In this document: one piece after another, positions 8,933-19,595 of the stretch
Numbering within the stretch: the first letter of the stretch is position 1
How the letters are laid out: each line of letters opens with the position of its first letter
Source of the DNA: a virus
Taxonomy: Duplodnaviria > Caudoviricetes
Length of the DNA stretch: 64,000 nucleotides
Reading direction: 5' to 3' (one strand)
Virus record (IMG/VR): IMGVR_UViG_3300042564_004954
Location: 4,169-68,168 of that record
Notes under the pieces: generated by a model
Seen by the model: only the letters and a program-made list of their open reading frames with translations
Databases searched by the model: none
What the model was told of the DNA's origin: nothing
Program-made: the position numbers and the translations under genes

Positions 8933-9010
8933 TGTGAAATAATAAACTGCCAAATAACAAAATAGCAAATAATAATAAGCTTAATAAACCCGTGGAAATC
9001 GACGGGATTG

Positions 9011-9085
9011 TAAGTGATTGAGGATGAGGGAGTTACGGGGCGAGGGCGGGGCGCAACCCGTAACTCATTGAAACTTAACATGTTA
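9011..9085 (+). repeat. tripartite repeat copy 1 (divergent)
   Basis: TAAGTGATTG..GAGTTAC-[23 bp GGGGCGAGGGCGGGGCGCAACCC]-GTAACTCATTG..ATGTTA. Confidence 0.85.
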
Positions 9086-9109
9086 TAAGGTCGCAAATTG
9101 CGACCTTAT
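9085..9109. terminator. hairpin / probable terminator
   Basis: ATAAGGTCGCA-AAT-TGCGACCTTAT at the end of the leftward block. Confidence 0.6.
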
Positions 9110-9300
9110 TTGATTTCGTAGCGATCAACAACCTCAAGCGTTTCCGCATCGAGATGGACAACGAAACCCTCTCTCCCTTTTTCAAGAGCACGTTCTTCTG
9201 TCTCTCTGTCGAGGTTTGTTTCTTTCCAACCTGGAGGTAAGCCCTTTGAGTGGACAATGATGCGGGATTGGTGAGCGATGTCTAGTTGGTATGCTCTCAT
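9106..9300 (-). CDS. hypothetical protein
   Basis: 64-aa ORF. Confidence 0.65.
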   Translation of the reverse strand: MRAYQLDIAHQSRIIVHSKGLPPGWKETNLDRETEERALEKGREGFVVHLDAETLEVVDRYEIK

Positions 9301-9427
9301 ATTTCTTTTTTTATTTCTTTTTTGCCATCGCTGCGCACTCGTTTATTCTGAACGCGCTTCCAGTATTTGCGTAAGTGTTTCCACCACTGAACGGTTGGAA
9401 CACTTCCTTTGCTTTTTGCTGAACTAC

Positions 9428-9820
9428 TCATACTGGTTCTCCTTTGTATTGGGTGTAAAGTGCGCGGACTCTGCCGTCAACAATACCAACATACTTGGCT
9501 TTGTCAATGGGTTTGTTGTAGTAATTTGAAACCGTGAAGGTTGGATTCTTGTATGGGTTGTAAGAAACAACGCTCTCGTATGTGAAAGAGCTAGGGATGA
9601 AAGGGAGTCGTTCGCCTTCAATGAAAGCATGAACATTCTTTTTCTTTTCGCGCAGCACCCTTTGCCTTCCTGCTTCACTCACCTTGAATGAAACATTGTG
9701 TAGATAGATTGTGTTTGTGTGATTAACAACCTTCCACCTGCCGTCAACCTTTTCCTGGACAGAGAAGAGTTTCTTGTGGAGGTTAAAGTAAACGCGAACT
9801 TTTTTGTTGGTAGTTTTCAT
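9428..9820 (-). CDS. conserved phage protein (VYFNLHK...GRQRVLREKKKNVHA...YNPY family)
   Basis: Recognisable widespread phage motif set. Confidence 0.85.
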   Translation of the reverse strand: MKTTNKKVRVYFNLHKKLFSVQEKVDGRWKVVNHTNTIYLHNVSFKVSEAGRQRVLREKKKNVHAFIEGERLPFIPSSFTYESVVSYNPYKNPTFTVSNYYNKPIDKAKYVGIVDGRVRALYTQYKGEPV

Positions 9821-9930
9821 GGGGATAGAGTTGCCGCTCTTATCGGGCGAGCGGCGAGCCGTCTGTCGATATTCTTTGTGCTTTTACTTGGGAGAAGTCT
9901 AGCGGGGAGAGCAGATATGTCAACTATTTT

Positions 9931-10104
9931 TTAACGATATTCGCTATCATCTTCTGGATGCCTTTGATCTGGCCCAGAGTAGTGAGGATTCTTTTCCCAT
10001 GAGTCCCAGCTTGTCAAGATCCATTGCTTATGAGGATTCTCCATGCCGAAGATTTGTTTCTGTTCTTCTATAGCTTCACGAATGATGTGTTGTCGTGCGT
10101 CCAT
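9931..10104 (-). CDS. small phage protein, leaderless
   Basis: 57-aa MDARQHII...WILTSWDSWEKNPHYSGPDQRHPE; TTGACA-16-TAGCTT-6-ATG. Confidence 0.75.
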   Translation of the reverse strand: MDARQHIIREAIEEQKQIFGMENPHKQWILTSWDSWEKNPHYSGPDQRHPEDDSEYR

Positions 10105-10166
10105 GTAAGAAAGCTAACAGAAAGATTAAGACTGTCAACTATTTTTTATTCTTTTTTATTTGGTTG

Positions 10167-10242
10167 CAACTCATTGGTTTTGAGAGAGTTACGGCTGAGG
10201 GTGGGGCCGCGCCCCGTAACCCCTTGATTTTCAAAGAGTTAC
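10167..10242 (+). repeat. tripartite repeat copy 2
   Basis: CAACTCATTG..GAGTTAC-[GGCTGAGGGTGGGGCCGCGCCCC]-GTAACCCCTTGATTTTCAAAGAGTTAC. Confidence 0.9.
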
Positions 10243-10258
10243 GAAACGAGACTTGATG

Positions 10259-10453
10259 TCACTCTGTCAAGACTTTTTCGATTTTTTGTTTAAGTTCTCC
10301 CAACATTTCTTGATGCATTGGAATGCGAACGCCAACCATGCCTTGCGTATCTATTTCATGCACACGCATCACTTGGACTTTGGAGTCCTCATGGATTGCA
10401 TCCACAAGGAACTCCCCAAGCTCGGTGTCGAGTATCGTTCGAAAGATGTTCAT
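10259..10453 (-). CDS. hypothetical protein
   Basis: 64-aa MNIFRTILD...; own promoter TTGACA-16-TAGCTT. Confidence 0.7.
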   Translation of the reverse strand: MNIFRTILDTELGEFLVDAIHEDSKVQVMRVHEIDTQGMVGVRIPMHQEMLGELKQKIEKVLTE

Positions 10454-10511
10454 CGCTTGCGACAAGCTATCACAAAGAAGACGGCTGTCAAGATTAAAAG
10501 AAGTTCGATGT

Positions 10512-11210
10512 TCATGCTGGCTCCAAAACAAAACCCGTTTCGTCTTTTTTGGCAAGACCTTTTTCTTTAAGCCCGACGATTTTTCCCTTGCCATCGAGAA
10601 AGCGGAGGTCGGTTTCGTCGCCGTCAATGACTGCATGACCATAGTATTCATTCGGCAAAGACTTGCGGAAAACCATTGCGACATTGCCACCCGAACGAAG
10701 GAAAGCGAGGGAGATTGCGCCGTTAGTTTCGGAGCGTGAAAAGGTAAGGTGATAGTTTTTCGGCATCTCACCATTGACAAAGCTGGTCATGCGTTCTGCG
10801 CTTTTGGTGTAGTCGTAGAACTGCACACTTGGGAAAGCGGCGAAAACATTTTGGCCGTTGTATTTGATTTTCTCCCATGGCAAGTCGCTTGTGAGGTTCA
10901 AGCGGAAGCAAGGTGTCATGCCTTTTTTTTCGGCAGACTTCATCGACTTTGCAACTTCTTTCCAAAGGTTGGCGAGGAAGGCTTGCTTGTCGTGAAAGAA
11001 CAAAAGAGTTTTTGCGATTCGTGCGCGTTGGACGGAAGACATTGCCCCACGCCCTGCGGTGTTGAGACAAGCGGCGGCGCAACCTTTGCTTGCGTCTTTG
11101 CATACATTAAACCCCGAAAGGTTGGCGGGTGCAAGGTGCAAGCCGTAGGTGATGAAACCCTTCTTCTCTCCCTTGCGTGTCTTGGCGTTTCCTGTGTTGA
11201 GTAGTGACAT
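10512..11210 (-). CDS. GP88-like Cys-containing phage protein
   Basis: CKDASKGCAAACL, RLNLTSD, FYDYTK, NYHLTFS, DGDETDLRFLD; leaderless start at 11210 (TTGCCA-16-TATGCT-6-ATG). Confidence 0.8.
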   Translation of the reverse strand: MSLLNTGNAKTRKGEKKGFITYGLHLAPANLSGFNVCKDASKGCAAACLNTAGRGAMSSVQRARIAKTLLFFHDKQAFLANLWKEVAKSMKSAEKKGMTPCFRLNLTSDLPWEKIKYNGQNVFAAFPSVQFYDYTKSAERMTSFVNGEMPKNYHLTFSRSETNGAISLAFLRSGGNVAMVFRKSLPNEYYGHAVIDGDETDLRFLDGKGKIVGLKEKGLAKKDETGFVLEPA

Positions 11211-11316
11211 GGCCAAAGCATAGCATCGGACGTAGCTATGGCAAGAGATTTTTTGCATATTTTTTTTATTTTTTTTTGCTTGACAAGATGCGTGTGAGTA
11301 TTTTGTCTACCATTCA

Positions 11317-11383
11317 TAAGTCATTGATTTTCAACGAGTTACGGGGCGCGGCCCCCCCGCCGCCCGTAACTGTCAAGAAAAAA
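11317..11383 (-). repeat. tripartite repeat copy 3 (inverted; one arm replaced by GTAACTGTCAAGAAAAAAA)
   Basis: TAAGTCATTGATTTTCAACGAGTTAC-[GGGGCGCGGCCCCCCCGCCGCCC]-GTAACTGTCAAG. Confidence 0.9.
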
Positions 11384-11398
11384 ATTCATTTTTTTTCA

Positions 11399-11430
11399 GA
11401 AAAAACCCCCGCCCTTTCGGGCGAGGGTTC
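11399..11430 (-). terminator. intrinsic terminator
   Basis: GCCC-TTTC-GGGC hairpin with T-run on the minus strand. Confidence 0.7.
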
Positions 11431-11443
11431 GTTTGCTTTACGC

Positions 11444-12238
11444 TTACGCTCCAACGACGACGAGCGTTTCCATTTCCTCCCCCGCATCAGCGGGATCGAT
11501 TTCGGCCTCGATGGTCGGGCGATGCCCAGCGATGCGGTCAAAGACCGATTGAGCAGTCATCGTGCGAAACGGCAACTTGGACAGATCACCGCCCTTGAGG
11601 TTTTCGGTGATGGAGTTGTAAAGCGTCCAGAGTGTGCCACCCTTGAACTCGTCATGGCGAGGGTTGCGAAACTCTTGCACAGCGGCGTAAATGTCACGAG
11701 CGGGGAACGCTTTCACATCCACAAGGTCGATAAGCAAGTCAGCGGCACGATCACGCGAGATTTCGGTTTCCTTGTAAAGCTCGATGCGCTTGCCCATGTC
11801 TGCCCAATGCGAGACAACGCGAGCGACTGCATCGGAGAGAACGCGAGGCAAGTCAGCAAGGATGTTCGTGGTGTGGCGGCGAGCCAACTTGATGTCGGAC
11901 GAGAAGCAAAGATTCTCGCAAACCATCATGCGATTCCCCACGCAAATGCTTGCGGCAAAGGACTTGTCGTGTGCGTTGCGTAGACCAAGCACGATTTGGC
12001 GATCAGAACCAGTGATGTCCGCGCCCTTGAGGGCAAACCCGCCAAAGTAGCGTTGACCACCACGAGCGAGCGAATGTTCTTCCAGCGACACTTCAAGCCC
12101 TGCGCGTCCGATTGCCTCACGAGTCATTTCGACAAGCGAGAAATGCGGGATGGGTTGGAAGCGGTCGGCGGCTTCTGGAGTTTCAACGCCCATGAGTTGT
12201 TCGGCGTTCACTTTGTTTTTTGCGATGATCAGTGACAT
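11444..12238 (-). CDS. DUF932-like phage protein
   Basis: PIPH, LGLRNAHDKS, VCENLCFS, RRHT, TLWTLYNSITE. Confidence 0.85.
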   Translation of the reverse strand: MSLIIAKNKVNAEQLMGVETPEAADRFQPIPHFSLVEMTREAIGRAGLEVSLEEHSLARGGQRYFGGFALKGADITGSDRQIVLGLRNAHDKSFAASICVGNRMMVCENLCFSSDIKLARRHTTNILADLPRVLSDAVARVVSHWADMGKRIELYKETEISRDRAADLLIDLVDVKAFPARDIYAAVQEFRNPRHDEFKGGTLWTLYNSITENLKGGDLSKLPFRTMTAQSVFDRIAGHRPTIEAEIDPADAGEEMETLVVVGA

Positions 12239-12410
12239 ATTGTTTTTTTCTATTAGTTGGAGTTGGATGCGCCATCAGCGGCGACAGGGACAAGATAGCA
12301 AAAACCCCGAACTTGTCCACACATTTTTCATTGTTTTTGTGTTTTTATTTTTTGAGCGAATCGCATTTTTTTTCTTGACAGGCGCGAACTACTATGAGTC
12401 TCGTAGATGC

Positions 12411-12486
12411 GTAACTCGTTTGTTTTCAACGAGTTACGGGCGGCGGCGGGGCCGCGCCCCGTAACTGCCTTATTTCCAACGAGTTA
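12411..12486 (+). repeat. tripartite repeat copy 4
   Basis: GTAACTCGTT-7-AACGAGTTAC-[GGGCGGCGGCGGGGCCGCGCCCC]-GTAACTGCCTTATTTCCAACGAGTTA. Confidence 0.95.
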
Positions 12487-12515
12487 GGAAGGGATCGCAC
12501 TTTGCGACCCCTTCC
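12487..12515. terminator. hairpin / probable terminator abutting repeat 4
   Basis: GGAAGGGATCGCA-CTT-TGCGACCCCTTCC. Confidence 0.55.
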
Positions 12516-12522
12516 CGTTATG

Positions 12523-12801
12523 TCAACCCACCCTTGCGAAACTTCTGATTGGATGATCGCCAACTACCTGTGGCACAAAGTCAATCGTCGGAGAGCCACC
12601 GAATTTGTTTTTGTAAGCTCGGAGAAAGGCTGTCAAGTCGCAATCTTCTTCAAGGTAGAAGTTTGATTTGTCTTGGTAGCTGTAGCGGCTTAACTTTACG
12701 CCAAGAGCTTCGACTTCTTTCTTGGGGACTTCAAGCCATCCATGTCCAGAGTCGGTGTGGAGTTTAAGGGTTAGTCTGTTTGGTGTGATTGTTGCGTTCA
12801 T
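12523..12801 (-). CDS. conserved phage protein (DSGHGWL / YLEEDCD family)
   Basis: HTDSGHGWL, SRYSY, YLEEDCD. Confidence 0.85.
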   Translation of the reverse strand: MNATITPNRLTLKLHTDSGHGWLEVPKKEVEALGVKLSRYSYQDKSNFYLEEDCDLTAFLRAYKNKFGGSPTIDFVPQVVGDHPIRSFARVG

Positions 12802-12952
12802 GCTGTTATTACTTCGTGGGAGATAGGTTGAATGATTTTGATGAGGTAGTCAATTACTTTTTGCGGTTGCTCATTAAAAAGAGGATGAGAACCATGCCGA
12901 TTGTCCATGCGATATGTAATGTGTCCATTATGAATGACAAAAACAAGATGTT

Positions 12953-13264
12953 TCATTGTTTGGAATGTTTGGTGTGAAAACCCACAAAGTCTTCCGCGAG
13001 GTTATTGATTAGTTCTTCTACAAAAGCAAAAGGGCTGGCATCGTCCATCGGGTTCAATTCAAACTTGGAGATTGCTTCCCAAGCTTCGATTTGTTTTTGG
13101 TCTTCTTGTTGATTGTCTACGCTGTATTCATCAGCGAGCAAAGCGAGTTCAAGTCTTTCGGCATTCCAATCTTGCGGCCATTTGGAGAGGAAATGTCCTG
13201 CGGCAATTAGGTATGCTTCGGCGTGGAGGGGATTGCGTGTGTCGATGTGGATGTAGTCTTGCAT
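12953..13264 (-). CDS. acidic hypothetical protein, leaderless
   Basis: 103 aa; TTGACA-17-TAACCT-6-ATG. Confidence 0.8.
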   Translation of the reverse strand: MQDYIHIDTRNPLHAEAYLIAAGHFLSKWPQDWNAERLELALLADEYSVDNQQEDQKQIEAWEAISKFELNPMDDASPFAFVEELINNLAEDFVGFHTKHSKQ

Positions 13265-13305
13265 GGCTGTAGGTTAGTTGTTTTGGGATTGCTTGTCAAC
13301 ATATT

Positions 13306-13434
13306 TTATTGCGCCAGAAAGTCTAAAAGATTTTCTTCTGGAACAAAAGATAAGAGTGCGGCTATTGCAGTTCTATCGCCCCAAGACAAGTCTTCTTCGA
13401 TTTGTTTGATTGCTTTTTCTATTAGATCGTCCAT
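13306..13434 (-). CDS. small phage protein, leaderless
   Basis: 42-aa MDDLIEKAIKQIEEDL...; TTGACA-17-TAACCT-6-ATG, promoter end identical to that of 13264. Confidence 0.7.
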   Translation of the reverse strand: MDDLIEKAIKQIEEDLSWGDRTAIAALLSFVPEENLLDFLAQ

Positions 13435-13619
13435 GGCTGTAGGTTAGTCGTTGGCGTGATGGTTGTCAAGAACGATTTTAAGATTTTCGCGGAGTTCTTC
13501 CTCGACTTCACTTTCGCCGCCAGAATATGCTTCCGCAAGCTCTAATGCTTGTTGGGCAATGTCTTTGAGCTGTTCAATTGTGTTTAGTAGTTCTTCGATT
13601 GTGGTCATGTATTTGGGGG

Positions 13620-13961
13620 TTAGTTTGTTGGGATGAATCTACGGGCAGGAATGCGGAGTGTCAAGCACCATTTTTTCCAATTCTCGCCATGAAAGTCATT
13701 GCGGCCATTTTTCTTGTGTGTGCCAAAGAATTTTGTTCTTTCGGTTATGTCAAGAGCGTGTGCAAGTTCATGCAAGAAGACTTCGGAAAACAAATGGAAA
13801 CTTTGCAGGATTTGATTTGAAAGCTCGATTCTCTTTTTTTCTATGCGATAGCAACCCAATCTTGTTTTTGTGTTTGTCCAAAGGACTGGGATGTGGGTCA
13901 TGTTATGCTGACGCAAGGTCAAGCGGATGTATTGTTCGGCTTCTTGGTGAGTGATTTTCAT
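13620..13961 (-). CDS. SprT-like zinc metalloprotease
   Basis: RLGCY, LHELAHAL, HGENWKKWC. Confidence 0.85.
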   Translation of the reverse strand: MKITHQEAEQYIRLTLRQHNMTHIPVLWTNTKTRLGCYRIEKKRIELSNQILQSFHLFSEVFLHELAHALDITERTKFFGTHKKNGRNDFHGENWKKWCLTLRIPARRFIPTN

Positions 13962-14005
13962 GCGGGGAAAGTTTGGGGGCTTTCGCCCCCTATGTCAATT
14001 ATTTT

Positions 14006-14488
14006 TTAGACATTAGCAGGAATTTCTTCGTCCTCGCCGTATTCGACAAAGTTAAAGTTTTCTTTTGCAAACTCTATGACATCAGCATCATCGACTTGGT
14101 TGTCGTCAATTTCACCTTGGGAGATGATAGCAGTCCCAGCAAACCAGCAACCAGACTCAAAGTAGTCAAGCGTGAATTGGTCATGTGGAAACATTTCAGA
14201 CAAGGCGGCAATCGCTTCGATGGGTGGACTATTAGCAGTCATAAAGGTTGCTTGAAAGTCTGCGCTTTCGGAAATGAGTTGGTCAGCAACTTCGCGTTGT
14301 TCTTGTTCGCTCAAGTCCCATTTGGTTCCCCAGTTTTGAAGTCTCCAATCATACCATCCATTGCCCTCAAGTAATTCTGGTGGTGTGGGTTTGATTTTCT
14401 CAAAAGAAAGACCATTTTCTTTTAGATAGCTTTCCAATTCTGGAGAGCAATCCATGACCGACAATTTATTTTCGTTCCAGTTAGGCAT
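14006..14488 (-). CDS. DUF1281/YubB ferredoxin-like domain protein
   Basis: MPNWNEN, WYDWRLQNWGTKWD, F.TA.SPP, ESG..FAG; TTGACT-17-TACATT-6-ATG. Confidence 0.85.
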   Translation of the reverse strand: MPNWNENKLSVMDCSPELESYLKENGLSFEKIKPTPPELLEGNGWYDWRLQNWGTKWDLSEQEQREVADQLISESADFQATFMTANSPPIEAIAALSEMFPHDQFTLDYFESGCWFAGTAIISQGEIDDNQVDDADVIEFAKENFNFVEYGEDEEIPANV

Positions 14489-14519
14489 GGCGGTAATGTA
14501 GGTTAGTGGTTGGGGTTAG

Positions 14520-14771
14520 TCAATAGGTTTTTGAAAGCAAAACAAGTGGCTTCAATGTGACAGGTCTTGCATTAACATAAAAGAAAAAACCATATTCCAA
14601 AACCTCAATGTCGCCATCGACTTTGGCAAGTGAAACATAGTCATCGCCATGATTGTCGGCAACGAATGGGCCTTCATCATCATGCCCGATAAAGTAAAGC
14701 GTATCGTTTAGATCGACAGCATAAGCGTCACTGAGTGCTTCGTGTAGTTGTTCAAGTGTGGTTGTTTGCAT
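14520..14771 (-). CDS. acidic hypothetical protein
   Basis: 83 aa with own promoter-like site. Confidence 0.75.
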   Translation of the reverse strand: MQTTTLEQLHEALSDAYAVDLNDTLYFIGHDDEGPFVADNHGDDYVSLAKVDGDIEVLEYGFFFYVNARPVTLKPLVLLSKTY

Positions 14772-14797
14772 GGCAGTAGTGTGTATTATTTTTGGGG

Positions 14798-14938
14798 TTA
14801 GTCAACAAGAAACCTGCGCTTCCATTGTGATTCTTGCACTTGCTTATCAAGCCAAGATTGTTGTTGAAAGATACGCGATCCGTAAATTGATTTGCGGTCG
14901 CGTGTGAATAGTGACAGGATGTGGTTGATGAGTTGCAT
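14798..14938 (-). CDS. small hypothetical protein, leaderless
   Basis: 46-aa MQLINHIL...; TTGACA-16-TAAGTT-6-ATG. Confidence 0.6.
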   Translation of the reverse strand: MQLINHILSLFTRDRKSIYGSRIFQQQSWLDKQVQESQWKRRFLVD

Positions 14939-15082
14939 GGGGGAAACTTAACACAAAGACGCGAGGTGTCAAATTTTATTTTCAGAATAAACTACAATTT
15001 TGTTCTTGACAAATCAACACTAGCAAATAGCAAAATAGTAAATAGCAAATCAGTTAATAGTTAATAGACTACATGGGCCGCT

Positions 15083-15158
15083 GTAAGTCATTGGTTTTGA
15101 ATGAGTTACGGGCGGGGGCGGGGCCGCGCCCCGTAACTCGCTTGTTTTCAATGAGTTA
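15083..15158 (+). repeat. tripartite repeat copy 5
   Basis: GTAAGTCATTGGTTTTGAATGAGTTAC-[GGGCGGGGGCGGGGCCGCGCCCC]-GTAACTCGCTTGTTTTCAATGAGTTA. Confidence 0.95.
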
Positions 15159-15176
15159 GAAAGGCGATGGGGCGAC

Positions 15177-15380
15177 TCAGAAGCCGCCATCGTAGCCCAT
15201 CGTGTATTCATTGTAGTCGTCTTCGGGGTAGTAGTTCCAATCCGAATCGTCGGGCTGGCGCTGGGCCTCAAGCTGGTCGAGGTGCGCGTGGTAGTCCGCG
15301 AGCGCAAGCTCGGCGGCTTCCGCAAGAGCGGCGGTGTATTCTTCGGGGGAAACTTCGGTGGCGTGGTAGGTGTTGGACAT
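15177..15380 (-). CDS. very acidic small protein, leaderless
   Basis: 67 aa; TTGCGT-16-TAATCT-6-ATG. Confidence 0.75.
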   Translation of the reverse strand: MSNTYHATEVSPEEYTAALAEAAELALADYHAHLDQLEAQRQPDDSDWNYYPEDDYNEYTMGYDGGF

Positions 15381-15424
15381 GGGAGTAGATTAATGGATTT
15401 TAAAAGAAACGCAAGAAAAACTTT

Positions 15425-15631
15425 TTATTTTCCGTGAAAAATTTTCAGATTTTCAACTCGGCTCGATGCAACCGTGCAGCGGTCGCCGCAGTATGGGTCG
15501 CGGTAAATGATGATGAACGCGCCGTCGAGAGTGTCGCGGTCGGTGACGCTTCCAGTCAGATTCATTCCGCAATAGGTGAATTGAACAAGAGTGTTGATGC
15601 GAGGGCGGGTGGTGGTGGTCGTGTTGGACAT
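15425..15631 (-). CDS. small protein, paralog of 19596..19790
   Basis: MSNTTTTTRPRIN...GSVTDR.TLDG.F.IIYRD; TTGCGT-16-TAACTT-6-ATG. Confidence 0.8.
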   Translation of the reverse strand: MSNTTTTTRPRINTLVQFTYCGMNLTGSVTDRDTLDGAFIIIYRDPYCGDRCTVASSRVENLKIFHGK

Positions 15632-15707
15632 GTAAGAAAGTTATCACAATTCGCTCGAAACGCAACAAAAAAAATCATTTTTTATGAGAAAAAAAGTTTC
15701 ACAAAAC

Positions 15708-15792
15708 TGCATTTTTTTCTTGACAGTTACGGCTGGCGGCGGGGCCGCGCCCCGTAACTCGCTGGGTTTCAACGAGTTAGAGAGTGTCAAGC
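15708..15792 (+). repeat. tripartite repeat copy 6 (85 bp identical to copy 7)
   Basis: TGCATTTTTTTCTTGACAGTTAC-[GGCTGGCGGCGGGGCCGCGCCCC]-GTAACTCGCTGGGTTTCAACGAGTTAGAGAGTGTCAAGC. Confidence 0.95.
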
Positions 15793-15822
15793 CCATAGGT
15801 TGATCGTTGGTAGGTATTTCAT
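15787..15822 (-). pseudogene. truncated mini-ORF MKYLPTINLWA ending inside repeat 6
   Basis: TGA-TATAAT 8 nt upstream of ATG; frame stops at the GCT-TGA supplied by the duplicated block. Confidence 0.45.
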
Positions 15823-15848
15823 ATGTTCTTATTATATCAGAGTTCCTA

Positions 15849-16058
15849 TTACCAGTGAGTATATTCTTTGATGATACCCTCTTCATTCAGATAGCGAGCG
15901 CACACATAAGTCTGAACGCAGCTATCATCACATGTCTCGAAAACATGAAACTTATCTTGCAACTCATACATAGCTTCGAGATACAATCTGCATGCTTCTT
16001 TTGCAGAGTTTAAGTTAGGATGAACATCATTAGGTGGCGTGGTGTTGCTGTCAGTCAT
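15849..16058 (-). CDS. hypothetical protein, leaderless
   Basis: 69 aa; TTGCGA-16-TAACTT-6-ATG. Confidence 0.75.
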   Translation of the reverse strand: MTDSNTTPPNDVHPNLNSAKEACRLYLEAMYELQDKFHVFETCDDSCVQTYVCARYLNEEGIIKEYTHW

Positions 16059-16135
16059 GCAAGAAAGTTATCACATCCCCGCGATATCGCAAGAAAAATT
16101 TTCACTTTCTGCAGAAAAAAAAACTTTCAGAAAAT

Positions 16136-16220
16136 TGCATTTTTTTCTTGACAGTTACGGCTGGCGGCGGGGCCGCGCCCCGTAACTCGCTGGGTTTCAA
16201 CGAGTTAGAGAGTGTCAAGC
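16136..16220 (+). repeat. tripartite repeat copy 7
   Basis: Identical to 15708-15792. Confidence 0.95.
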
Positions 16221-16391
16221 TTTTTCTTCTGGCAATTTCTCCCAGCAGTATTCAGCCACGCCAGCATCGTATCCTAAACGATACAAGTGGCGATCCATGT
16301 CGTCATCAAAAGTATTGTCTTCGACTCCAACAGTAAACCCATCATAGAATCCTAGTTGGTAGGCTTTTTGTAGTTCTAGTTCTTCTTTCAT
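16215..16391 (-). CDS. small acidic protein (YxxGyxxG repeats)
   Basis: 58-aa MKEELELQKAYQLGFYDG...YRLGYDAG...EEKA. Confidence 0.7.
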   Translation of the reverse strand: MKEELELQKAYQLGFYDGFTVGVEDNTFDDDMDRHLYRLGYDAGVAEYCWEKLPEEKA

Positions 16392-16411
16392 TTTTTAGTG
16401 TGTAGTTAAAA

Positions 16412-16627
16412 TCATGCGCGTTGAGTGCGCCTGTCAAGATGATTTTTGAACTTATTTCGCAGAAGATCGGCGCTTTGTTTTCTGTCAACAAAAACGCTAG
16501 CGGCCTCGCGTCCATCGCTGAAAACCAAAAGTGGGCGAGGATGTTTCATGAACTTGTGGATTTTAAGATCAAACAAGGGTGTGCGGTAGGTGGTGACGAA
16601 TGCGTTGCGTGTTATGGTGTATTTCAT
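16412..16627 (-). CDS. basic hypothetical protein
   Basis: 71 aa; TTGATA-17-TACTCT upstream. Confidence 0.7.
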   Translation of the reverse strand: MKYTITRNAFVTTYRTPLFDLKIHKFMKHPRPLLVFSDGREAASVFVDRKQSADLLRNKFKNHLDRRTQRA

Positions 16628-16666
16628 GGCGGGGAAAGAGTAAGATTTTTTTTCGAGATTATCAAC

Positions 16667-16840
16667 TTATTTTTTCATTTCGATGAAAATTCTTTGAGGA
16701 ATGAACCAGAGACTTGGGGCAACCATCATTGCAAGGAAACTATTTTGCAACCAAGCAGGGCATTCAATGAGGAAAAGTCCAGAGCCGCAAAGGATGGAGC
16801 AGGAAAGAAGGAAGAGGCTTTCGAGTATTGCGTTTTTCAT
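16667..16840 (-). CDS. small membrane protein
   Basis: MKNAILESLFLLSCSILCGSGLFLI...; own TTGACA...TATCTT promoter. Confidence 0.55.
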   Translation of the reverse strand: MKNAILESLFLLSCSILCGSGLFLIECPAWLQNSFLAMMVAPSLWFIPQRIFIEMKK

Positions 16841-16993
16841 GGCGGGAGAAAGATAAAGTTTTTGGGGCGGGTTGTCAATTTTTATTTCTGCAAGATTCTT
16901 TGTTTTGTTTTTTCTTTTTGTCTACAAAGCGAATCGTTGCAGGGGCAAAGCGGATGCGAGGCTTTGCGGGTTGGATGGTGATGGTGATGGTTT

Positions 16994-17200
16994 TCATTCT
17001 TCTGTCAAATTCTTTTCTTCAAGTATTTGCTGGCGGTCGCGCTTCTGCCGTTCAAGATCACGGAGATGGCGAATCTTTGAGGGTTGTCTCTTTATCAATT
17101 CGGACACTCGCGCTATTTCTTTGTCAATCCACGCGATTTCGGCATAGACTTGGCTGACTGGATAACTTGAGGAAATCTTTATTTTGCTTGGCGTGGTCAT
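16994..17200 (-). CDS. hypothetical protein
   Basis: 68 aa ending ILEEKNLTEE. Confidence 0.65.
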   Translation of the reverse strand: MTTPSKIKISSSYPVSQVYAEIAWIDKEIARVSELIKRQPSKIRHLRDLERQKRDRQQILEEKNLTEE

Positions 17201-17220
17201 GGTTTTATTTTATTTTGATT

Positions 17221-17376
17221 TTATGCTTCTGTCAAATTCTTTTCTTCCAGTATTGCTTCAAGAGAAGAAATTTCTTCTTCGATTCTTTCGCAACCTTCCC
17301 AGTCTGAAAATTCTTCGCAGAGTTCAAGTTGCTTGCGGAGGTTGTCGATGGCGATGACGAGCGATGTGGTAGACAT
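17221..17376 (-). CDS. small acidic protein, leaderless
   Basis: 51-aa MSTTSLVI...ILEEKNLTEA; TTGCGG-16-TACCTT-6-ATG. Confidence 0.7.
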   Translation of the reverse strand: MSTTSLVIAIDNLRKQLELCEEFSDWEGCERIEEEISSLEAILEEKNLTEA

Positions 17377-17453
17377 GTAAGAAAGGTATCACAAGCCCCC
17401 GATTCCGCAACAAAAAAAATCATTTTTTGCAGAAAAAAAACTTTCACAAAACC

Positions 17454-17524
17454 GCATTTTTTTCTTGACAGTTACGGCTGGCGGCGGGGCCGCGCCCCGT
17501 AACTCGCTCATTTTCAAGCGGTTA
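17454..17524 (+). repeat. tripartite repeat copy 8
   Basis: GCATTTTTTTCTTGACAGTTAC-[GGCTGGCGGCGGGGCCGCGCCCC]-GTAACTCGCTCATTTTCAAGCGGTTA. Confidence 0.95.
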
Positions 17525-17532
17525 TGACTTTT

Positions 17533-17576
17533 GGGTGTAGTCGCGCCCCCTACCACAGAGGCGCGACTTTTCACCC
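17533..17576. terminator. GC-rich hairpin next to repeat 8
   Basis: AGTCGCGCCCCCT-ACCAC-AGAGGCGCGACT. Confidence 0.55.
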
Positions 17577-17588
17577 ATGCCCGAAAAA

Positions 17589-17753
17589 TTATTCTTGCAA
17601 TGCGCTTTTGAAGCACCCTGCCCAAGTCAACGCGAGGCAAAGCCAAAAAACAATAAAGTTTAGATCGTGTGGTATGATGTCATACGCTCGCACAATCGAA
17701 AAAATCGCAATGTGTAAAGAAGAAAAGAAAAGACAAAGAACGGCAGATTTCAT
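17589..17753 (-). CDS. small two-TM membrane protein
   Basis: 54-aa MKSAVLCLFFSSLHIAIFSIV...FIVFWLCLALTWAGCF. Confidence 0.55.
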   Translation of the reverse strand: MKSAVLCLFFSSLHIAIFSIVRAYDIIPHDLNFIVFWLCLALTWAGCFKSALQE

Positions 17754-17818
17754 TTTTTTTTATTTTTTAAGGTTGACAAGGTGGGCCTTTTAGTGTGATG
17801 CCCAGCACGCTTCACCAC

Positions 17819-18073
17819 TCACACGACGAGATCAATTCCCGCGAGGTGAAGGTTGCGATGCTTGCTTTCGCCGCCATCGTCAACATCCTTGGCAAGGATA
17901 GTGACATAACGACGACCTGATTTTTTGCCAATCGAAACATGATCGACTGCCTCGACTTTGAAGACGCGAACGCCATCATTTTTGATTTTGGAATCATTCG
18001 CAAAGTAGCGAACGGTTTTGCCGACGAGTGCGTTTGCGATTTCAAGTGCGGATGCTTGGTAGTTTATGTTCAT
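17819..18073 (-). CDS. hypothetical protein
   Basis: 84-aa MNINYQ... ORF. Confidence 0.75.
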   Translation of the reverse strand: MNINYQASALEIANALVGKTVRYFANDSKIKNDGVRVFKVEAVDHVSIGKKSGRRYVTILAKDVDDGGESKHRNLHLAGIDLVV

Positions 18074-18146
18074 GGTGTGTTTTGTTTTGTTTATTGTTGC
18101 GGGAGAAGTATGGCAGATTTTTCGGATTGTGTCAACTTTATTTTGA

Positions 18147-18296
18147 TTATCCGCGATTTTTTAAGCGGATGAAAACATCCTTATTGTCTTCCATGATTTG
18201 GCTCAATTGTTGAAAGCAGTAGTCAAACCAGACTTGTTGAGTGATTTGGCCAGCTTGAACCTTGGCAAACATTTCTTTGTATTCGGTGGTGTTCAT
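18147..18296 (-). CDS. small phage protein
   Basis: 49-aa MNTTEYKEMF...DVFIRLKNRG; TTGACG-17-TACTCT upstream. Confidence 0.7.
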   Translation of the reverse strand: MNTTEYKEMFAKVQAGQITQQVWFDYCFQQLSQIMEDNKDVFIRLKNRG

Positions 18297-18337
18297 GACA
18301 GGGAGAGAGTAAGATTTTTTTTGTGTTGCGTCAACTT

Positions 18338-18472
18338 TTATTTTTCAAGAAGTGAAGAAAAGTATTCGGCGGCTTGTTCGGCTTGCCACTCATACATGGC
18401 TTGCGTTGCGGCTTCGTGAAATGCGGCGAGCAGTTCGACTGAATCGGTGTGGGTGAGTTGGTCAATGGACAT
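18338..18472 (-). CDS. small acidic protein, leaderless
   Basis: 44-aa MSIDQLTH...; TTGCCA-16-TAACTT-6-ATG. Confidence 0.65.
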   Translation of the reverse strand: MSIDQLTHTDSVELLAAFHEAATQAMYEWQAEQAAEYFSSLLEK

Positions 18473-18515
18473 GAGAGAAAGTTAGTTTATTTTGAGAGAA
18501 TGGCAAGAAAAATTT

Positions 18516-18743
18516 TCAGATTTCTTCGATCAATTCGACTGGCAAGGGCTTTGTCATTTGCGTGGTTTGCTCATTGCTCACACGCTCAACCCAGAAGAAG
18601 AAACCATTCAAGATGCGGAAATTTTCGTTTGGCATGATTGTTTCGCCCTTGGTGATTTTTGTCTTGTGCGTGGAATGCCAGTAGGCAACGGTAAAGTTTT
18701 TAGTAGCGCGGAACATAGTGGCGGTGGTAGTGGTGTTGGTCAT
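18516..18743 (-). CDS. hypothetical protein, leaderless
   Basis: 75-aa MTNTTTTAT...; TTGCTA-16-TAACTT-6-ATG. Confidence 0.75.
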   Translation of the reverse strand: MTNTTTTATMFRATKNFTVAYWHSTHKTKITKGETIMPNENFRILNGFFFWVERVSNEQTTQMTKPLPVELIEEI

Positions 18744-18808
18744 GAGAGAAAGTTAGCAGATTTTCGGAGTGTAGCAAGAAAAATTTTCGTTTTTTTCAGC
18801 TTGGAAAG

Positions 18809-18871
18809 TGGTGAGCAGTTTTAAGAGATGCTCAACTCTCTAGAGTGATTTAGCGAGTACCCGAAGCTCGT
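18809..18871 (-). ncRNA. candidate 63-nt RNA: UUCG hairpin plus H-type pseudoknot followed by CCA
   Basis: Promoter TTGCAT-17-TATTCT-6-A with no ATG; AGAGA-GTTGAGCA-TCTCT-TAAAAC-TGCTCA-CCA. Confidence 0.55.
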
Positions 18872-18988
18872 GCGCAAAGAATAACCTCGGAACCGATAAA
18901 ATGCAACATCTTTTTTCATTTTTTATTTTTTATTTTTCGCACTTTTTTCTTGACGGATTGAGTATTTATGATAAAGAAGCGAAAAACA

Positions 18989-19064
18989 TAACTCATTGAT
19001 TTTCAACGAGTTACGGGGCGCGGCCCCGCCCCCGCCCGTAACTCACTCATTCTCAACGAGTTAC
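18989..19064 (-). repeat. tripartite repeat copy 9 (inverted)
   Basis: TAACTCATTGATTTTCAACGAGTTAC-[GGGGCGCGGCCCCGCCCCCGCCC]-GTAACTCACTCATTCTCAACGAGTTAC. Confidence 0.95.
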
Positions 19065-19167
19065 AGAGGCAGTGGCAATGTAGTTATGCTATGCACAATG
19101 TGCCATACTACTACAAGCGTAGTAGTAAAGCACACGGCGCTTGCAACTATGTCATGCAGTTCTTCAC

Positions 19168-19392
19168 TCATGCCGACATTCCTTCTTCTTCTAGAAATTC
19201 CATTGCGGCTTCTTGTGCGTAGTCGAGAAGCTCACTCATGGGTGTCATGCTATCTGCTTCCTCGATCATATCTTCAAGCGTGTCGATGTGATCGCATAGC
19301 AATGCGGTATCTGGTAGATCATCGAGAGACAAGCCGACAATGGCGTAGACTTGTGCGTTGATCATCTTTCGTGCTTTGTTTCGTGCGCTCAT
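19168..19392 (-). CDS. acidic hypothetical protein
   Basis: 74 aa containing GLSLDDLPD. Confidence 0.75.
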   Translation of the reverse strand: MSARNKARKMINAQVYAIVGLSLDDLPDTALLCDHIDTLEDMIEEADSMTPMSELLDYAQEAAMEFLEEEGMSA

Positions 19393-19395
19393 GTG

Positions 19396-19575
19396 TTAGT
19401 TGTGTTTGATGTATGATTGAAGATGTGCGAGGCAGTAGCAGGTCGCGCCAAAGGTCAAGAAGCATACAGCGTCAAACACTTCGCTTCGTCCTCCGTAGAT
19501 ACAGAAGGCACAAAGGCTAAAGACAGGCGACATGGTGATGATGGCAGAGCCAAGAATTGCTAGTGTGTGTTTCAT
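19396..19575 (-). CDS. small membrane protein
   Basis: MKHTLAILGSAIITMSPVFSLCAFCIY...CFLTFGATCYCLA. Confidence 0.55.
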   Translation of the reverse strand: MKHTLAILGSAIITMSPVFSLCAFCIYGGRSEVFDAVCFLTFGATCYCLAHLQSYIKHN

Positions 19576-19595
19576 TTTTTTTCTATGTGTTATGT

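Follow-up and report, generated by a model that had tools for sequence, protein, structure and literature searches.

Paired palindromic sites around a G+C-rich spacer as possible boundary elements between early transcription units of a lake phage

Results and discussion

The early region in the window, by which we mean the whole 64,000-nt stretch of DNA that was analysed, is punctuated by a repeat made of palindromic arms and a G+C-rich core. With about even confidence, we read these repeats as boundary elements between early transcription units, in which paired, conserved palindromic sites flank a G+C-rich spacer and are presumably bound by a host protein. They would be PeSL/BIME-like elements built on predicted sites for a protein that is presumably host-derived, and the phage probably borrows this DNA-binding protein at the borders of its early blocks.

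Nine copies divide the early region

The motif GTTAC-N23-GTAAC has 9 matches in the window, against 0.04 expected (mean of shuffles; none of 100 shuffles reached 9), which bears out the nine copies of the original prediction. Their pentamers start at 9032, 10188, 11338, 12433, 15105, 15726, 16154, 17471, and 19010 (Table 1). No tenth copy was found in a search of the whole 68,168-bp record, so the repeat is confined to the early region of its own record, as had been claimed for the window. The predicted 23-bp spacing holds for the nine copies and for 41 of 41 copies in close relatives, where 20-26 bp was allowed, while the wider family adds spacings of 24, 25, and 31 bp. The claim that every copy has two arms stands only for copies 2, 4, 5, and 9. 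Copy 1 has degenerate arms (4-5 mismatches to the family consensus, as in several other arms of the window), and four of the nine copies (3, 6, 7, and 8) have a single arm, with a T-run and then CTTGACA on the opposite side. The arm singled out as best, that of copy 4, is indeed a perfect 10-N7-10 palindrome, and the inversion of copies 3 and 9 is confirmed when copies are oriented by the G-rich side of the core.

Table 1. Positions of the early region and of the repeat copies in the window
Feature	Positions	Strand	Description
Early region holding the repeats	9106..20458	-	~40 small ORFs
Copy 1	9010..9086	.	degenerate left arm 9010-9036, core 9037-9059, degenerate right arm 9060-9086
Copy 2	10166..10242	.	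arms 10166-10192 and 10216-10242, core 10193-10215
Copy 3	11316..11384	.	core inverted; arm 11316-11342, core 11343-11365
Copy 4	12411..12487	.	left arm 12411-12437 (best), core 12438-12460, weak right arm 12461-12487
Copy 5	15083..15159	.	arms 15083-15109 and 15133-15159, core 15110-15132
Copy 6	15711..15780	.	one-armed; core 15731-15753, right arm 15754-15780
Copy 7	16139..16208	.	one-armed; core 16159-16181, right arm 16182-16208
Copy 8	17456..17525	.	one-armed; core 17476-17498, right arm 17499-17525 (5 mismatches to consensus)
Copy 9	18988..19064	.	core inverted; arms 18988-19014 and 19038-19064, core 19015-19037

All early genes are on the - strand, and the G+C content of the early region is 44-49%, compared with 27-42% elsewhere in the window. 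For most of its ORFs, the ATG is preceded at 6-10 nt by a TTGACA-N16-18-TAnnnT promoter-like site; 34 promoter-like sites were counted, versus 14.5 expected. The gene families include L5 gp82, GP88, DUF932, SprT-like, and DUF1281_C, and 16 of 20 small early ORFs scanned match no Pfam family (E<=0.001). The phage is of a long-tailed type with a tape measure protein of 2651 aa.

As predicted, copies 2-9 lie between the 3' end of one gene block and the promoter of the next, 6-100 bp past a stop codon and upstream of a promoter-like site; the next unit's promoter and the A/T-rich stretch upstream of it come after the arms. Copy 1 is located at the convergence of + strand genes, ending at 8932, and the - strand early genes, ending at 9106, and a + strand terminator-like hairpin (9085-9109) comes after it. 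Copy 2 begins 16 bp past the stop of the - strand gene 10259-10456, with the - strand TTGACA promoter-like site of gene 9931-10104 just beyond it. Copy 3, in which TGTCAAG and an A-run (11371-11384) replace the second arm, is flanked by the canonical - strand terminator of the DUF932 gene (~11400-11425) on one side and by the GP88-family gene promoter on the other. Copy 5 begins 17 bp past the stop of gene 15177-15380 and has the nine-gene block 12523-14938 downstream of it. In copy 6, the T-run and CTTGACA adjoin GTTAC, and the ATG of gene 15425-15631 follows ~94 bp downstream; the near-identical copy 7 begins 6 bp past the stop of gene 16215-16391. Read by eye, roughly 40 to more than 200 bp separate an arm from the next promoter-like site, a spread that fits classical activator geometry poorly.

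The arms are conserved as sequence

The repeat is common to a large family of lake-phage contigs. Across 479 arms (331 unique, 61 sources), the consensus is GTAASTCGTTGA-N3-TCAACGASTTAC, a 27-bp palindrome. The arms are the best-conserved part of the repeat across deep divergence, with DUF932 protein identity down to 44%. With up to 3 mismatches, arms match 29, 15, and 20 times in the related records G010, G011, and G012, confined to 10.5, 10.4, and 9.7 kb of their 112, 140, and 134 kb, respectively; the reversed control pattern gave 0 matches in all three.

The arm regex fixed 8 of the 27 positions, and covariation was judged at the remaining positions only. At 8 variable arm positions, 4.598 Watson-Crick pairs were observed, compared with 4.665 +/- 0.054 after shuffling of partner halves. 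Position 5/23 is C-G in 94 arms, G-G in 88, C-C in 84, and G-C in 65; position 9/19 is T-A in 204, T-G in 61, C-A in 59, and C-G in 3. No compensatory changes occur within the 331 unique arms, where double changes are avoided, and when the two arms were compared, neither their inner nor their outer halves covaried. The two half-site orientations are conserved to the same degree. Conservation in the arms thus concerns the sequence and not the base pairs, and we interpret them as half-sites in double-stranded DNA that a dimeric protein would bind, rather than as RNA or DNA stems.

These counts make it quite improbable that the repeat acts as RNA, with transcribed arms and core folding into hairpins that are processed in an RNase III-like manner or protect upstream mRNA 3' ends. 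RNase III processing does occur between phage T7 early genes, 10-12 bp can pair within each arm, and the core with its pentamers has a folding energy of about -14 kcal/mol, whichever strand is taken. The location past stop codons would suit a 3' stabiliser, and one RNA-library contig, which may derive from DNA in the library, spans gene 10259-10456 into copy 2. The equal conservation of both half-site orientations argues against such a role, as does the core itself, which on the sense strand is C-rich in 92 cases, G-rich in 51, and equal in 8, and flips at matching sites. No Rfam family matched the repeat.

Arms are A/T-centred, and 46% carry an exact IHF-consensus match; the strings predicted in copies 3 and 9 were confirmed, and another is found in copy 2. 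We keep IHF as a candidate only.

The core is constrained in length

The 154 unique two-arm elements have cores of 23 bp (118 elements), 24 bp (20), 25 bp (13), or another length (3). Looser arm criteria give 209 unique neighbouring pairs, of which 169 are spaced 50-52 bp from arm to arm and 16 are spaced 58 bp. Core length is thus constrained while core sequence drifts; cores are similar within a genome and differ between lineages. Because the two distance classes are out of helical phase, they do not imply one fixed arrangement in three dimensions. Of the 16 pairs spaced 58 bp apart, 15 have a core with a 6-bp G+C stem, a 3-nt loop, and then a T-run of 3-4, and these stems are on the sense strand in 14 of 14 from loci L034, L035, and L038. 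By their sequence, they look like sense-oriented intrinsic terminators. The cores of the window have no U-tract, and core self-complementarity is 4.67 bp, compared with 4.48 bp in shuffled cores (6 of 138 cores exceed the 95th percentile of shuffles).

The terminator-like class raises the question of whether the repeat is a plain PeSL-type cassette. The core would then be an attenuator or terminator stem-loop followed by an early promoter, the copies would be homology patches for ORFan shuffling, and the arms would have no separate function. As far as the PeSL modules of T4-type phages are described in the parts of Arbiol et al. 2010 (PMC2839356) and Comeau et al. 2014 (PMC4122927) considered here, they combine a sigma-70-like early promoter, an A/T-rich stretch upstream of the -35, and a stem-loop, often poly-G then poly-C, in hyperplastic regions rich in ORFans. 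The layout in the window matches this description. In both systems, intergenic modules recur across a hyperplastic early region crowded with small ORFans and show the same order of a G+C-rich stem-loop-capable segment, an A/T-rich stretch, a strong sigma-70-like promoter, and a start codon. In both, recombination between copies proceeds with no dedicated recombinase, and close relatives differ in the cassettes they carry. The excess of promoter-like sites and the many ORFs without a Pfam family also favour this reading, which we nevertheless consider unlikely. The phage here is of another long-tailed type, and its G+C segment is flanked at a constrained distance by two 27-bp palindromes whose conservation exceeds that of the segment and which are also found repeatedly in bacterial chromosomes. 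Moreover, the cores of the window lack a U-tract and do not exceed shuffled cores in self-complementarity, and breakpoints are not enriched at the repeat (see below).

The same palindrome recurs in bacterial chromosomes

An exact 25-mer arm was found in 26 stretches of species-representative genomes, 23 of them from Fibrobacter, Verrucomicrobiota/Lentisphaerae, or Bacteroidota by record title. With up to 3 mismatches, one Akkermansia, one Fibrobacter, and one Verrucomicrobiales genome contain 17, 15, and 16 sites, respectively, and the reversed control gave 0 matches in each. These sites are intergenic and mostly upstream of gene starts, including those of dnaA, argS, glutamine synthetase III, and a glycosyltransferase. 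Complementary bases occupy the two S positions in 20 of the 26 exact matches (manual count), and bacterial sites may form a stem. Of 41 sampled genomes from the Akkermansia phylum, 2 contain the motif (<=1 mismatch), the Akkermansia genome itself being one of them; this patchiness makes a universal host factor unlikely. Chromosomal copies keep their gene neighbourhood in several species within a genus (in Akkermansia upstream of argS, in Fibrobacter next to an M23 peptidase gene), a pattern that fits a retained regulatory site better than a mobile one.

The kept neighbourhoods bear on whether the repeat is a selfish MITE/REPIN-like element that colonised intergenic gaps, its arms serving as terminal inverted repeats for a transposase provided in trans. 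L022 has none of the arms that L023 carries at the corresponding intergenic sites (genes 90-95% identical), and at one such site AACAG stands on both sides of the element in L023 and once in L022 (one case, by eye). One metagenome contig lacks 11279-11384, weakly (side 21, depth 3.6), and the likeness of cores within a genome would also suit such an element. We judge it improbable, however, given the kept chromosomal neighbourhoods, the restriction of copies to one 10-kb region, and the searches of phage records, two complete relatives among them, in which no Y1 transposase or tyrosine or serine recombinase was found.

Homology breakpoints do not centre on the repeats

The original prediction offered two interpretations, a protein-bound site or an integron-like recombination site. 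The former is supported by inference from the conserved arms, their independently varying halves, and the repeated intergenic palindrome in bacterial chromosomes; the latter is not supported. The observation that the window lacks a recombinase extends beyond it: none of three families (tyrosine recombinase, serine recombinase, Y1 transposase) was found in 7 phage records, 2 of them relatives rated 100% complete. In the same records, no Bac_DNA_binding (HU/IHF) protein exceeded the family cut-off. Homology breakpoints against relatives were also not enriched at repeats, contrary to the expectation that gene gains and losses would break there: 7 of 53 distinct breakpoints fall within 30 bp of a repeat, where 9.7% of the region lies that close, and 46 lie farther away. 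Cassette content varies between close relatives and within lake metagenome contigs, and the variant joints in these contigs are mostly at gene starts or promoter repeats.

The 27-bp palindromes do have the geometry of core sites at which cassettes might be excised, inserted, or inverted, with two 12-bp inverted half-sites around a short spacer. Between close relatives, the 23-bp core is found inverted within flanks identical at 59 of 60 positions; the core is flipped at the site of copy 4 in a close relative and occurs in either orientation at the sites matching copy 9. Homology between L022 and L023 stops mid-arm in one case. In Bacteroidota, the palindrome lies ~50-180 bp from tyrosine-integrase genes in 3 loci (L079, L093, L097), and it adjoins a tRNA 3' end in 5 loci (ARAGORN). 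Against this, the 50 bp between sites would be too short for synapsis by known invertases, and the suggested likeness to attC fails, since GTTACGG departs at its fifth base from the signature RYYYAAC...GTTRRRY. Together with the missing recombinases and the position of breakpoints and joints, this leaves site-specific recombination very improbable and close to refuted. Copies do exchange sequence and their cores flip, and ordinary homologous or hairpin-mediated events explain both.

A model for a proposed boundary element

In the boundary element that we favour, two 27-bp palindromic DNA sites would be held at a set distance by the G+C-rich spacer, which may serve as a rigid linker or be a terminator remnant, and in some lineages would form a sense-oriented terminator hairpin. 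A dimeric, sequence-specific DNA-binding protein would occupy both arms. It is probably of host origin, because no obvious candidate was found in the complete phage relatives and the site is present in host chromosomes; a member of the HU/IHF family is one candidate. Once bound, the protein and the DNA together could insulate, attenuate, or tune transcription across cassette borders. The likeness of the copies, together with the inverted-repeat form of each, would also make them patches for homologous exchange, with core flips between relatives.

Multi-copy operators are known from other early regions. The C1 operators of P1 and the 'stoperators' of mycobacteriophage L5 are short, asymmetric, single sites bound by the phage's own repressor. 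They share with the present repeat one protein-binding site (putative here) in many copies in short intergenic gaps of early operons, and two early genes here fall in families named after L5 gp82 and gp88. The sites described here differ in being palindromic, paired around a spacer, and common to bacterial chromosomes, and no phage repressor was identified for them.

As reviewed in PMC3333891, BIME-1, an IHF-binding REP element of enterobacteria, is likewise a tripartite intergenic repeat that lies at the ends of transcription units and combines G+C-rich palindromic DNA with an architectural-protein site (predicted here). The proposed roles (terminator, mRNA stabiliser, topological insulator, protein binding) are also alike. 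BIME-1 places two G+C-rich REPs around an IHF-site linker, whereas the phage repeat has the reverse layout, A/T-centred palindromes around a G+C-rich spacer. It also differs in its location in a phage and in lacking the GTAG tetranucleotide, stem covariation, and a RAYT, which was not found.

The injection-stop region of T5, in the part of its description consulted (Davison, bioRxiv 10.1101/866236), has repeats clustered in untranslated blocks, in contrast to one per cassette border here, and its sequences and architecture are unrelated. Nevertheless, each system consists of conserved non-coding repeats and palindromes in the pre-early part, the first to enter, of a large siphovirus genome, and host-protein binding has been proposed for both, by DnaA in T5.

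The three-part element separates blocks of small early genes

From about 9.1 to 20.5 kb of the window, every plausible gene lies on the - strand and most genes are tiny; 16 of the 20 small early ORFs scanned have no Pfam family at E ≤ 0.001. The G+C content is 44-49% in this early region versus 27-42% in the remaining window. Many early genes are preceded by TTGACA-N16-18-TAnnnT, which ends just 6-10 nt before the ATG. Promoter-like sites number 34, compared with 14.5 ± 4.0 in shuffled sequences, and 27 of them are on the - strand. Early genes seem to have almost no leader (window 9100-20460, - strand; e.g. 10104-10146, 15631-15665, and 18296-18335): the second hexamer often reads TAnCTTTC and ends 6-10 nt from the ATG, with no visible Shine-Dalgarno sequence. 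This extended hexamer resembles the Bacteroidota -7 motif, TAnnTTTG, a likeness that may be a clue to the host.

The window has nine matches to GTTAC-N23-GTAAC, versus a mean of 0.04 in dinucleotide-preserving shuffles, which bears out the nine copies and exact 23-bp spacing described in the original prediction. Their confinement to the early region also holds, since the whole 68,168-bp IMG/VR record (rated about 55% complete), of which the window covers bases 4169-68168, contains no further copy. Copies 3 and 9 are indeed inverted once all are aligned on the G-rich side of the core. As had been proposed, copies 2-9 lie between the 3' end of one gene block and the next promoter, beginning 6-100 bp past a stop codon and upstream of the next promoter-like site; copy 1 occupies the convergent end of the early region. 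An A/T-rich stretch separates copies 6-8 from the next promoter-like site. The description of palindromic arms on both sides stood in part. The best arm of the window (12411-12437) is a perfect 10-N7-10 palindrome, but copies 3, 6, 7, and 8 have a single arm, the pentamer on the opposite side abutting a T-run followed by CTTGACA, and the arms of copy 1 are weak, with 4-5 mismatches to the family consensus.

Positions and content of the features described in the text
Feature	Position or content	Strand	Source
GTTAC-N23-GTAAC, pentamer starts	9032, 10188, 11338, 12433, 15105, 15726, 16154, 17471, 19010		Window pattern scan
Named families of the early region	L5 gp82, GP88, DUF932, DUF1281_C domain, SprT-like	-	
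Structural genes right of the early region	Large terminase, 2651-aa tape measure protein, tail proteins	+	
Example variant joints	16394 to 16624 or 16837; 16652 to 17240; 18126 to 18326		Lake metagenome contigs
Exact 25-mer arm, 26 stretches	7 Fibrobacter; 7 Verrucomicrobiota/Lentisphaerae; 9 Bacteroidota; 2 on one Enterobacterales-labelled MAG contig; 1 unlabelled		Species-representative genomes, taxa per record titles
TGCATT-N4-AATGC beside arm-type sites	L105, L107, L108, L110, L111, L113-L116		Akkermansia genome G005

The window copies do not have the features of intrinsic terminators (hairpin plus U-tract), as a T-run after the core is absent in all nine. A terminator scan of the nine copies picked up only the arm of copy 9 (18987-19015), and a canonical hairpin-plus-T-run terminator at about 11400-11425 precedes copy 3. 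The T-run and CTTGACA beside copies 3-8 were considered as an antisense promoter and rejected, there being no acceptable -10 element at 16-18 bp. Readings of the core as a sigma-54 site or G-quadruplex were set aside on sequence grounds, the relevant bases varying among copies. A megablast search of INPHARED with window 9000-19100 gave no match, and Rfam at E ≤ 1 over window 8500-20600 gave 3 sub-threshold, chance-level matches, none on the repeats. Short repeats of the AATAGCAAA type lie at 8961-8975 and 15026-15055, beside copies 1 and 5 only, and these are all 3 exact matches in 64 kb.

The element marks a large phage clade

Seven stretches, from six contigs, came up in an IMG/VR pattern scan. 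The copies are confined in two longer relatives as well, to the final 6.3 kb of one record (85 kb) and to 8.6-18.3 kb of another (36.8 kb). Scanning relatives for arms, as had been suggested, gave the same picture in three long records: all matches fall within about 10 kb, 15 and 20 in the 140- and 134-kb records (rated 100% complete) and 29 in the 112-kb record (rated 87%), and a reversed control pattern gave no match in any of the three. When the protein of the DUF932 gene between copies 3 and 4 was used as a query, 60 further loci were recovered at 100% down to 27% identity, and many of these have the three-part design with lineage-specific cores. The regular expression TAAST...ASTTA collected 479 arms (331 unique) in 738 kb, and the unique arms give the consensus GTAASTCGTTGA-N3-TCAACGASTTAC. 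Because the exact 25-mer arm is present in at least 120 IMG/VR stretches, the three-part element marks a large phage clade. Of 20 listed lake-water metagenome runs, 18 contain half or more of the sampled words of the window, and two were flagged as possible sources.

The spacing was expected to persist in homologues if the element is a protein-bound site. It does so among close relatives, where the core is exactly 23 bp in 41 of 41 copies at 8 loci, a set partly overlapping in origin because loci L012-L014 re-fetch the records behind L006-L011 (≤1 mismatch per pentamer, 20-26-bp cores allowed). The wider family is less strict: of the 154 unique two-arm elements, 118 have a 23-bp core, 20 a 24-bp core, and 13 a 25-bp core, with other lengths in 3. 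With looser arms, 209 unique neighbouring pairs have start distances of 50-52 bp in 169 cases and of 58 bp in 16; a few pairs have 34-47 or 66-68 bp between starts. Both the 58-bp and the 34-38-bp class weaken helical phasing as the sole cause of the fixed spacing.

Gene content between the elements varies, both between the window and close relatives and among lake-water metagenome contigs. A clustering of 4649 ORFs from 61 loci, covering only ±6 kb around one gene, was searched for a phage gene that tracks the arms; within this span the best ORF family was present at 28 of 44 arm-bearing and 2 of 15 arm-poor loci. Two loci that are close relatives of each other offer a side view. Locus L022 (1700-9820) is without GTAAC-type arms and has inverted-repeat arrays, ATCTAACAG ... 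CTGTTAGAT, surrounding a short G+C-rich centre at equivalent intergenic places; this other repeat type (CTAACAG ... CTGTTAG around a small core) stands where L023 has elements. In L023 the arm element and the L022-type repeat are both present and nested; at one site AACAG lies on both sides of the L023 element and is single in L022. Homology blocks between the two loci end at elements, and their order is shuffled.

The arms are conserved as sequence and not as stems

A palindromic arm might be conserved as a hairpin stem or as a pair of double-stranded half-sites. Eight of the 27 arm positions are fixed by the regular expression and are uninformative on covariation, so the following applies to the remaining positions. 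Watson-Crick pairs at the eight variable arm positions average 4.598, compared with 4.665 ± 0.054 when partner halves are shuffled. At positions 5/23 the four C/G combinations occur at similar frequency (94, 88, 84, and 65), and at positions 9/19 single changes occur 61 and 59 times and the compensated double change only 3 times. Between the two arms of an element no covariation was found for the inner or the outer halves. Both orientations of the half-site are equally conserved. Since the halves change without matching each other, our conclusion is that conservation acts on the arms as double-stranded half-sites, the signature of a dimeric DNA-binding protein. This is the reverse of an attC site: the sequence of the arm is conserved and its pairing is not.

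Site-specific recombination at the repeats is unlikely

The original prediction weighed an integron-like site for swapping cassettes and, with it, a co-occurring recombinase. Phage_integrase (PF00589) had no match in the own record (G000), the fragmentary phage relatives G002, G003, and G004, or the long relatives G010, G011, and G012, the last two of which are rated 100% complete; its positive control matched in 14 of 14 genomes. Resolvase likewise had no match in these seven records, nor Y1_Tnp (PF01797) in five of them (own, G003, and the three long relatives, two complete), with positive controls detected in both searches. Tyrosine and serine recombinases were therefore not found in these records. 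It had also been suggested to test whether breaks between relatives fall at the repeats. The 9 relatives that could be aligned to the window yield 53 distinct homology breakpoints. Of these, 7 are no more than 30 bp from a repeat, a zone that makes up 9.7% of the region, and there is thus no enrichment. Most variant joints in metagenomes coincide with gene starts or promoter repeats (examples in the table). One joint going back 1152 bp (16997 to 15846), on contigs of two DNA runs and away from repeats, could represent a circle, a duplication, or another gene order. As for the TAAC...GTTA-like ends, GTTACGG does not fit the GTTRRRY of the attC pair RYYYAAC/GTTRRRY. With no recombinase in the seven records and no breakpoint enrichment, the integron-like model fails the test proposed for it and a recombination site is unlikely, which removes the tempting but unsupported idea of a phage integron.

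The core is G+C-rich, mostly unstructured beyond composition, and can be flipped

Mean core G+C is 89%. The longest inverted repeat in a core averages 4.67 bp versus 4.48 bp in shuffled cores, and only 6 of 138 cores exceed the 95th percentile of their own shuffles (mean folding-energy z-score -0.56). Although 33-mers fold at about -14 kcal/mol, their cores are no more self-complementary than shuffled ones; because of this match, the small G+C hairpin of the window cores is largely a by-product of composition. The 58-bp class differs, with a 6-bp G+C stem, a 3-nt loop, and a T-run of 3-4 in 15 of 16 cores. All 14 terminator-like cores of this class from the loci L034, L035, and L038 are on the sense strand, and for that reason these cores are plausible candidate intrinsic terminators. 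Stems that are otherwise the same carry loops that are complements of each other (GAA/TTC and GTA/TAC), which points to small inversions of the hairpin loop as a frequent event, one similar in kind to the flip of the 23-bp core.

Such flipping is visible at two matching sites of close relatives. The flanks, arms included, are identical at 59 or 60 of 60 positions, and the 23-bp cores agree better as reverse complements (19/23 and 18/23) than directly (13/23 and 12/23). One flipped core bears the variable half found in a different copy of another relative, so copies exchange sequence. Across the family, the core is C-rich on the sense strand in 92 cases, G-rich in 51, and equal in 8.

The arm palindrome recurs in some bacterial chromosomes, mostly upstream of genes

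The exact 25-mer arm was also found in a collection of species-representative genomes, in which we estimate, assuming equal base frequencies, that fewer than one match is expected by chance. The Verrucomicrobiota/Lentisphaerae stretches belong to Akkermansia, Verrucomicrobiales, and Victivallales. Four of the 26 stretches have the three-part form known from the phages; they come from three short contigs (two in addition to the Enterobacterales-labelled one) that may be phage DNA binned into MAGs; the remaining stretches are single sites on large chromosomal contigs. With ≤3 mismatches, five genomes have 17, 15, 16, 5, and 3 sites, compared with 0, 0, 0, 2, and 0 for the reversed control. The motif is patchy: of 41 genomes sampled from the Akkermansia phylum, 2 have it at ≤1 mismatch, and the Akkermansia genome itself is one of these.

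All 17 sites of the Akkermansia genome are intergenic, and about 14-15 are upstream of at least one gene start in ORF maps read by eye. Neighbouring genes include dnaA, argS, and those for glutamine synthetase III, a glycosyltransferase, and an acyltransferase. The argS-proximal site recurs with its flanks in three Akkermansia-like species genomes, and four Fibrobacter species genomes share a site near a small gene and a gene for an M23 peptidase. In the Verrucomicrobiales genome, pairs of sites are 58 bp apart at two loci and two sites are 33 nt apart at locus L119; one pair is upstream of a gene for a 37-kD nucleoid-associated protein. In Bacteroidota and Lentisphaerae, the site is often a few bases past the 3' end of a tRNA gene (confirmed by ARAGORN at 5 loci), and at three Bacteroidota loci a tyrosine integrase gene is found within about 50-180 bp of it. 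Bacteria and phage share one spectrum of half-site variants (e.g. the ...TCAATCACTTA form). Literature searches with half-site strings gave only unrelated papers among the matches listed, one occurrence being in an unrelated terminator table, and a search on Akkermansia promoter motifs gave nothing relevant among the matches listed.

A second palindrome, TGCATT-N4-AATGC, followed by a TAnnnT hexamer, adjoins 9 of the 17 arm-type sites in the Akkermansia genome; the argS and dnaA sites have ATGTTCCACA(TGGAACAT) instead. These second palindromes point to a composite promoter architecture.

A host protein is the probable binder

The conservation of arm sequence without pairing, together with the same palindrome in bacterial chromosomes, makes the predicted protein-bound site likely, and we infer that the two palindromes would be occupied by a dimeric protein. 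Taken as a whole, the original observation was confirmed and extended, with this reading likely and a recombination site unlikely. A search for a co-occurring IHF/HU-like gene had been suggested; no Bac_DNA_binding (PF00216) match in the phage records exceeded the family cut-off, the best being a single 13.5-bit match. The binder is probably the host's, because some bacterial chromosomes carry the same site at promoters, bacteria and phage have the half-site variants in common, and the complete phage relatives are without an obvious binder.

The motif WATCAANNNNTTR, the E. coli IHF consensus, matches exactly in at least one half of 153 of the 331 unique arms, although this consensus may not hold for the host. 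The exact matches reported for copies 3 and 9 are present and copy 2 has one too, so that 3 of the 7 matches in 64 kb fall in arms. The TT and AA steps of TTGA-N3-TCAA are 9 bp apart, which is the spacing of the two IHF kinks. Arm sites also occur in contexts that recall those of classical IHF sites: beside integrase and tRNA genes, near dnaA, upstream of promoters, and at operon ends. These matches and contexts, and an IHF/HU-family host factor described for a Bacteroides integrative element (PMC6606824), make an HU/IHF-type protein a candidate binder, one that we consider rather unlikely and that leans on E. coli rules.

Possible, and offered tentatively, is a fuller account in which the 27-bp arm would be the recognition site of an uncharacterised, sequence-specific DNA-binding protein found in part of the Fibrobacterota, Bacteroidota, and Verrucomicrobiota, maybe homodimeric and of HU/IHF type, and a large clade of lake phages would pack about 15-30 copies, paired around stiff G+C spacers, into the first-expressed 10 kb as insulator/enhancer or sponge. 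The arms would recruit the host protein as an architectural insulator or enhancer of early transcription; alternatively, they would soak it up as a DNA sponge and disturb dependent host promoters (of dnaA and argS, for instance). Should a host protein bind the arms, they would lead to an unstudied regulon in tool-poor groups (Akkermansia, Fibrobacter, freshwater Verrucomicrobiales, and Chitinophagales), and a 27-bp site with 15-17 occurrences per genome is a ready bait for such a regulator. The element would then also serve as a tag for a large clade of uncultured lake phages of roughly 130-140 kb, and it may give a clue to the bacteria they infect.

The element is best read as punctuation between early transcription units

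Protein bound at the arms could act as a roadblock, supercoil barrier, upstream enhancer, or sponge. Insulation or attenuation at cassette borders is favoured because the repeats sit past stop codons, one lineage has terminator-like cores, and the distance to the next promoter varies. The best reading of the element is thus punctuation between early transcription units.

Known systems resemble it in logic. PeSL cassettes of T4-type phages (PMC2839356) join a promoter to an A/T-rich stretch and a G/C stem-loop and shuffle ORFans without a dedicated recombinase. The repeats here likewise adjoin predicted strong sigma-70-like early promoters with an A/T-rich upstream stretch. The stem-loop of PeSL terminates or attenuates upstream transcription; the 58-bp class of relatives looks like a terminator, and the window cores have no U-tract and only shuffle-level self-complementarity. 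Breaks between relatives occur at the motif in PeSL and are not concentrated at it here. Cassettes of PeSL also give DNA circles between motifs; a circle is one of the three possible origins of the joint from 16997 back to 15846. A similar logic is seen in BIME-1 of enterobacteria (PMC3333891), in which palindromes and an IHF site at operon ends have roles as terminator, stabiliser, and topological insulator. REP/BIME elements (REPIN) go with RAYT (a Y1 transposase), stem covariation in G+C-rich palindromes, and GTAG, whereas we found no PF01797 match in 5 records, no covariation, and no GTAG foot in the copies. Integron attC sites conserve structure, that of a folded bottom strand, and have a cognate integrase; here sequence is conserved and no integrase was found in 7 records. 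The injection-stop repeats of T5 were ruled out as a match by their different architecture. The literature search found no paper on palindromic GC-rich early-region phage repeats. The pair of sequence-conserved palindromes is new relative to PeSL and BIME-1. The element is a variant within a known kind of phage regulatory cassette, unexpectedly tied to a DNA motif of bacteria that has yet to be characterised. If the arms bind a host protein, modules of promoter and stem-loop would carry protein-binding sites too, a point that bears on how strongly promoted early units are kept apart.

Two RNA-library runs contained 0.06-0.07 of the sampled words and covered 13-14 of 30 bins, as contigs uninformative on 3' ends, strand, and termination. 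Summed contig depth in the two freshwater libraries is high only at window 10924-11327 and 12136-12539, which take in the 5' ends of the GP88-family and DUF932 genes and the DNA upstream of them, with other organisms a possible source. Some contigs link about 11275 to about 17748 with other letters between; the depth and the joined contigs may reflect related phages or low-complexity matches.

Other features of the phages

A 147,748-bp IMG/VR contig has two different DUF932 loci (L041 and L043) about 124 kb apart, both 70% identical to the query and differing in G+C and arm counts; these could be diverged copies in a long terminal region or a chimeric assembly. The window shows a sharp compositional split within one phage genome, with 44-49% G+C at 9000-20000 and 27-38% in the structural part. 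The large terminase ORF (25883-28954, + strand) encodes 1023 aa, in which a helicase PHROG match (residues 76-405) is followed by a terminase match (479-854). The tail-region protein encoded at 51351-53369 (+ strand) combines a C-type lectin domain with a carbohydrate-binding module; C-type lectin folds are common targets of diversity-generating retroelements.
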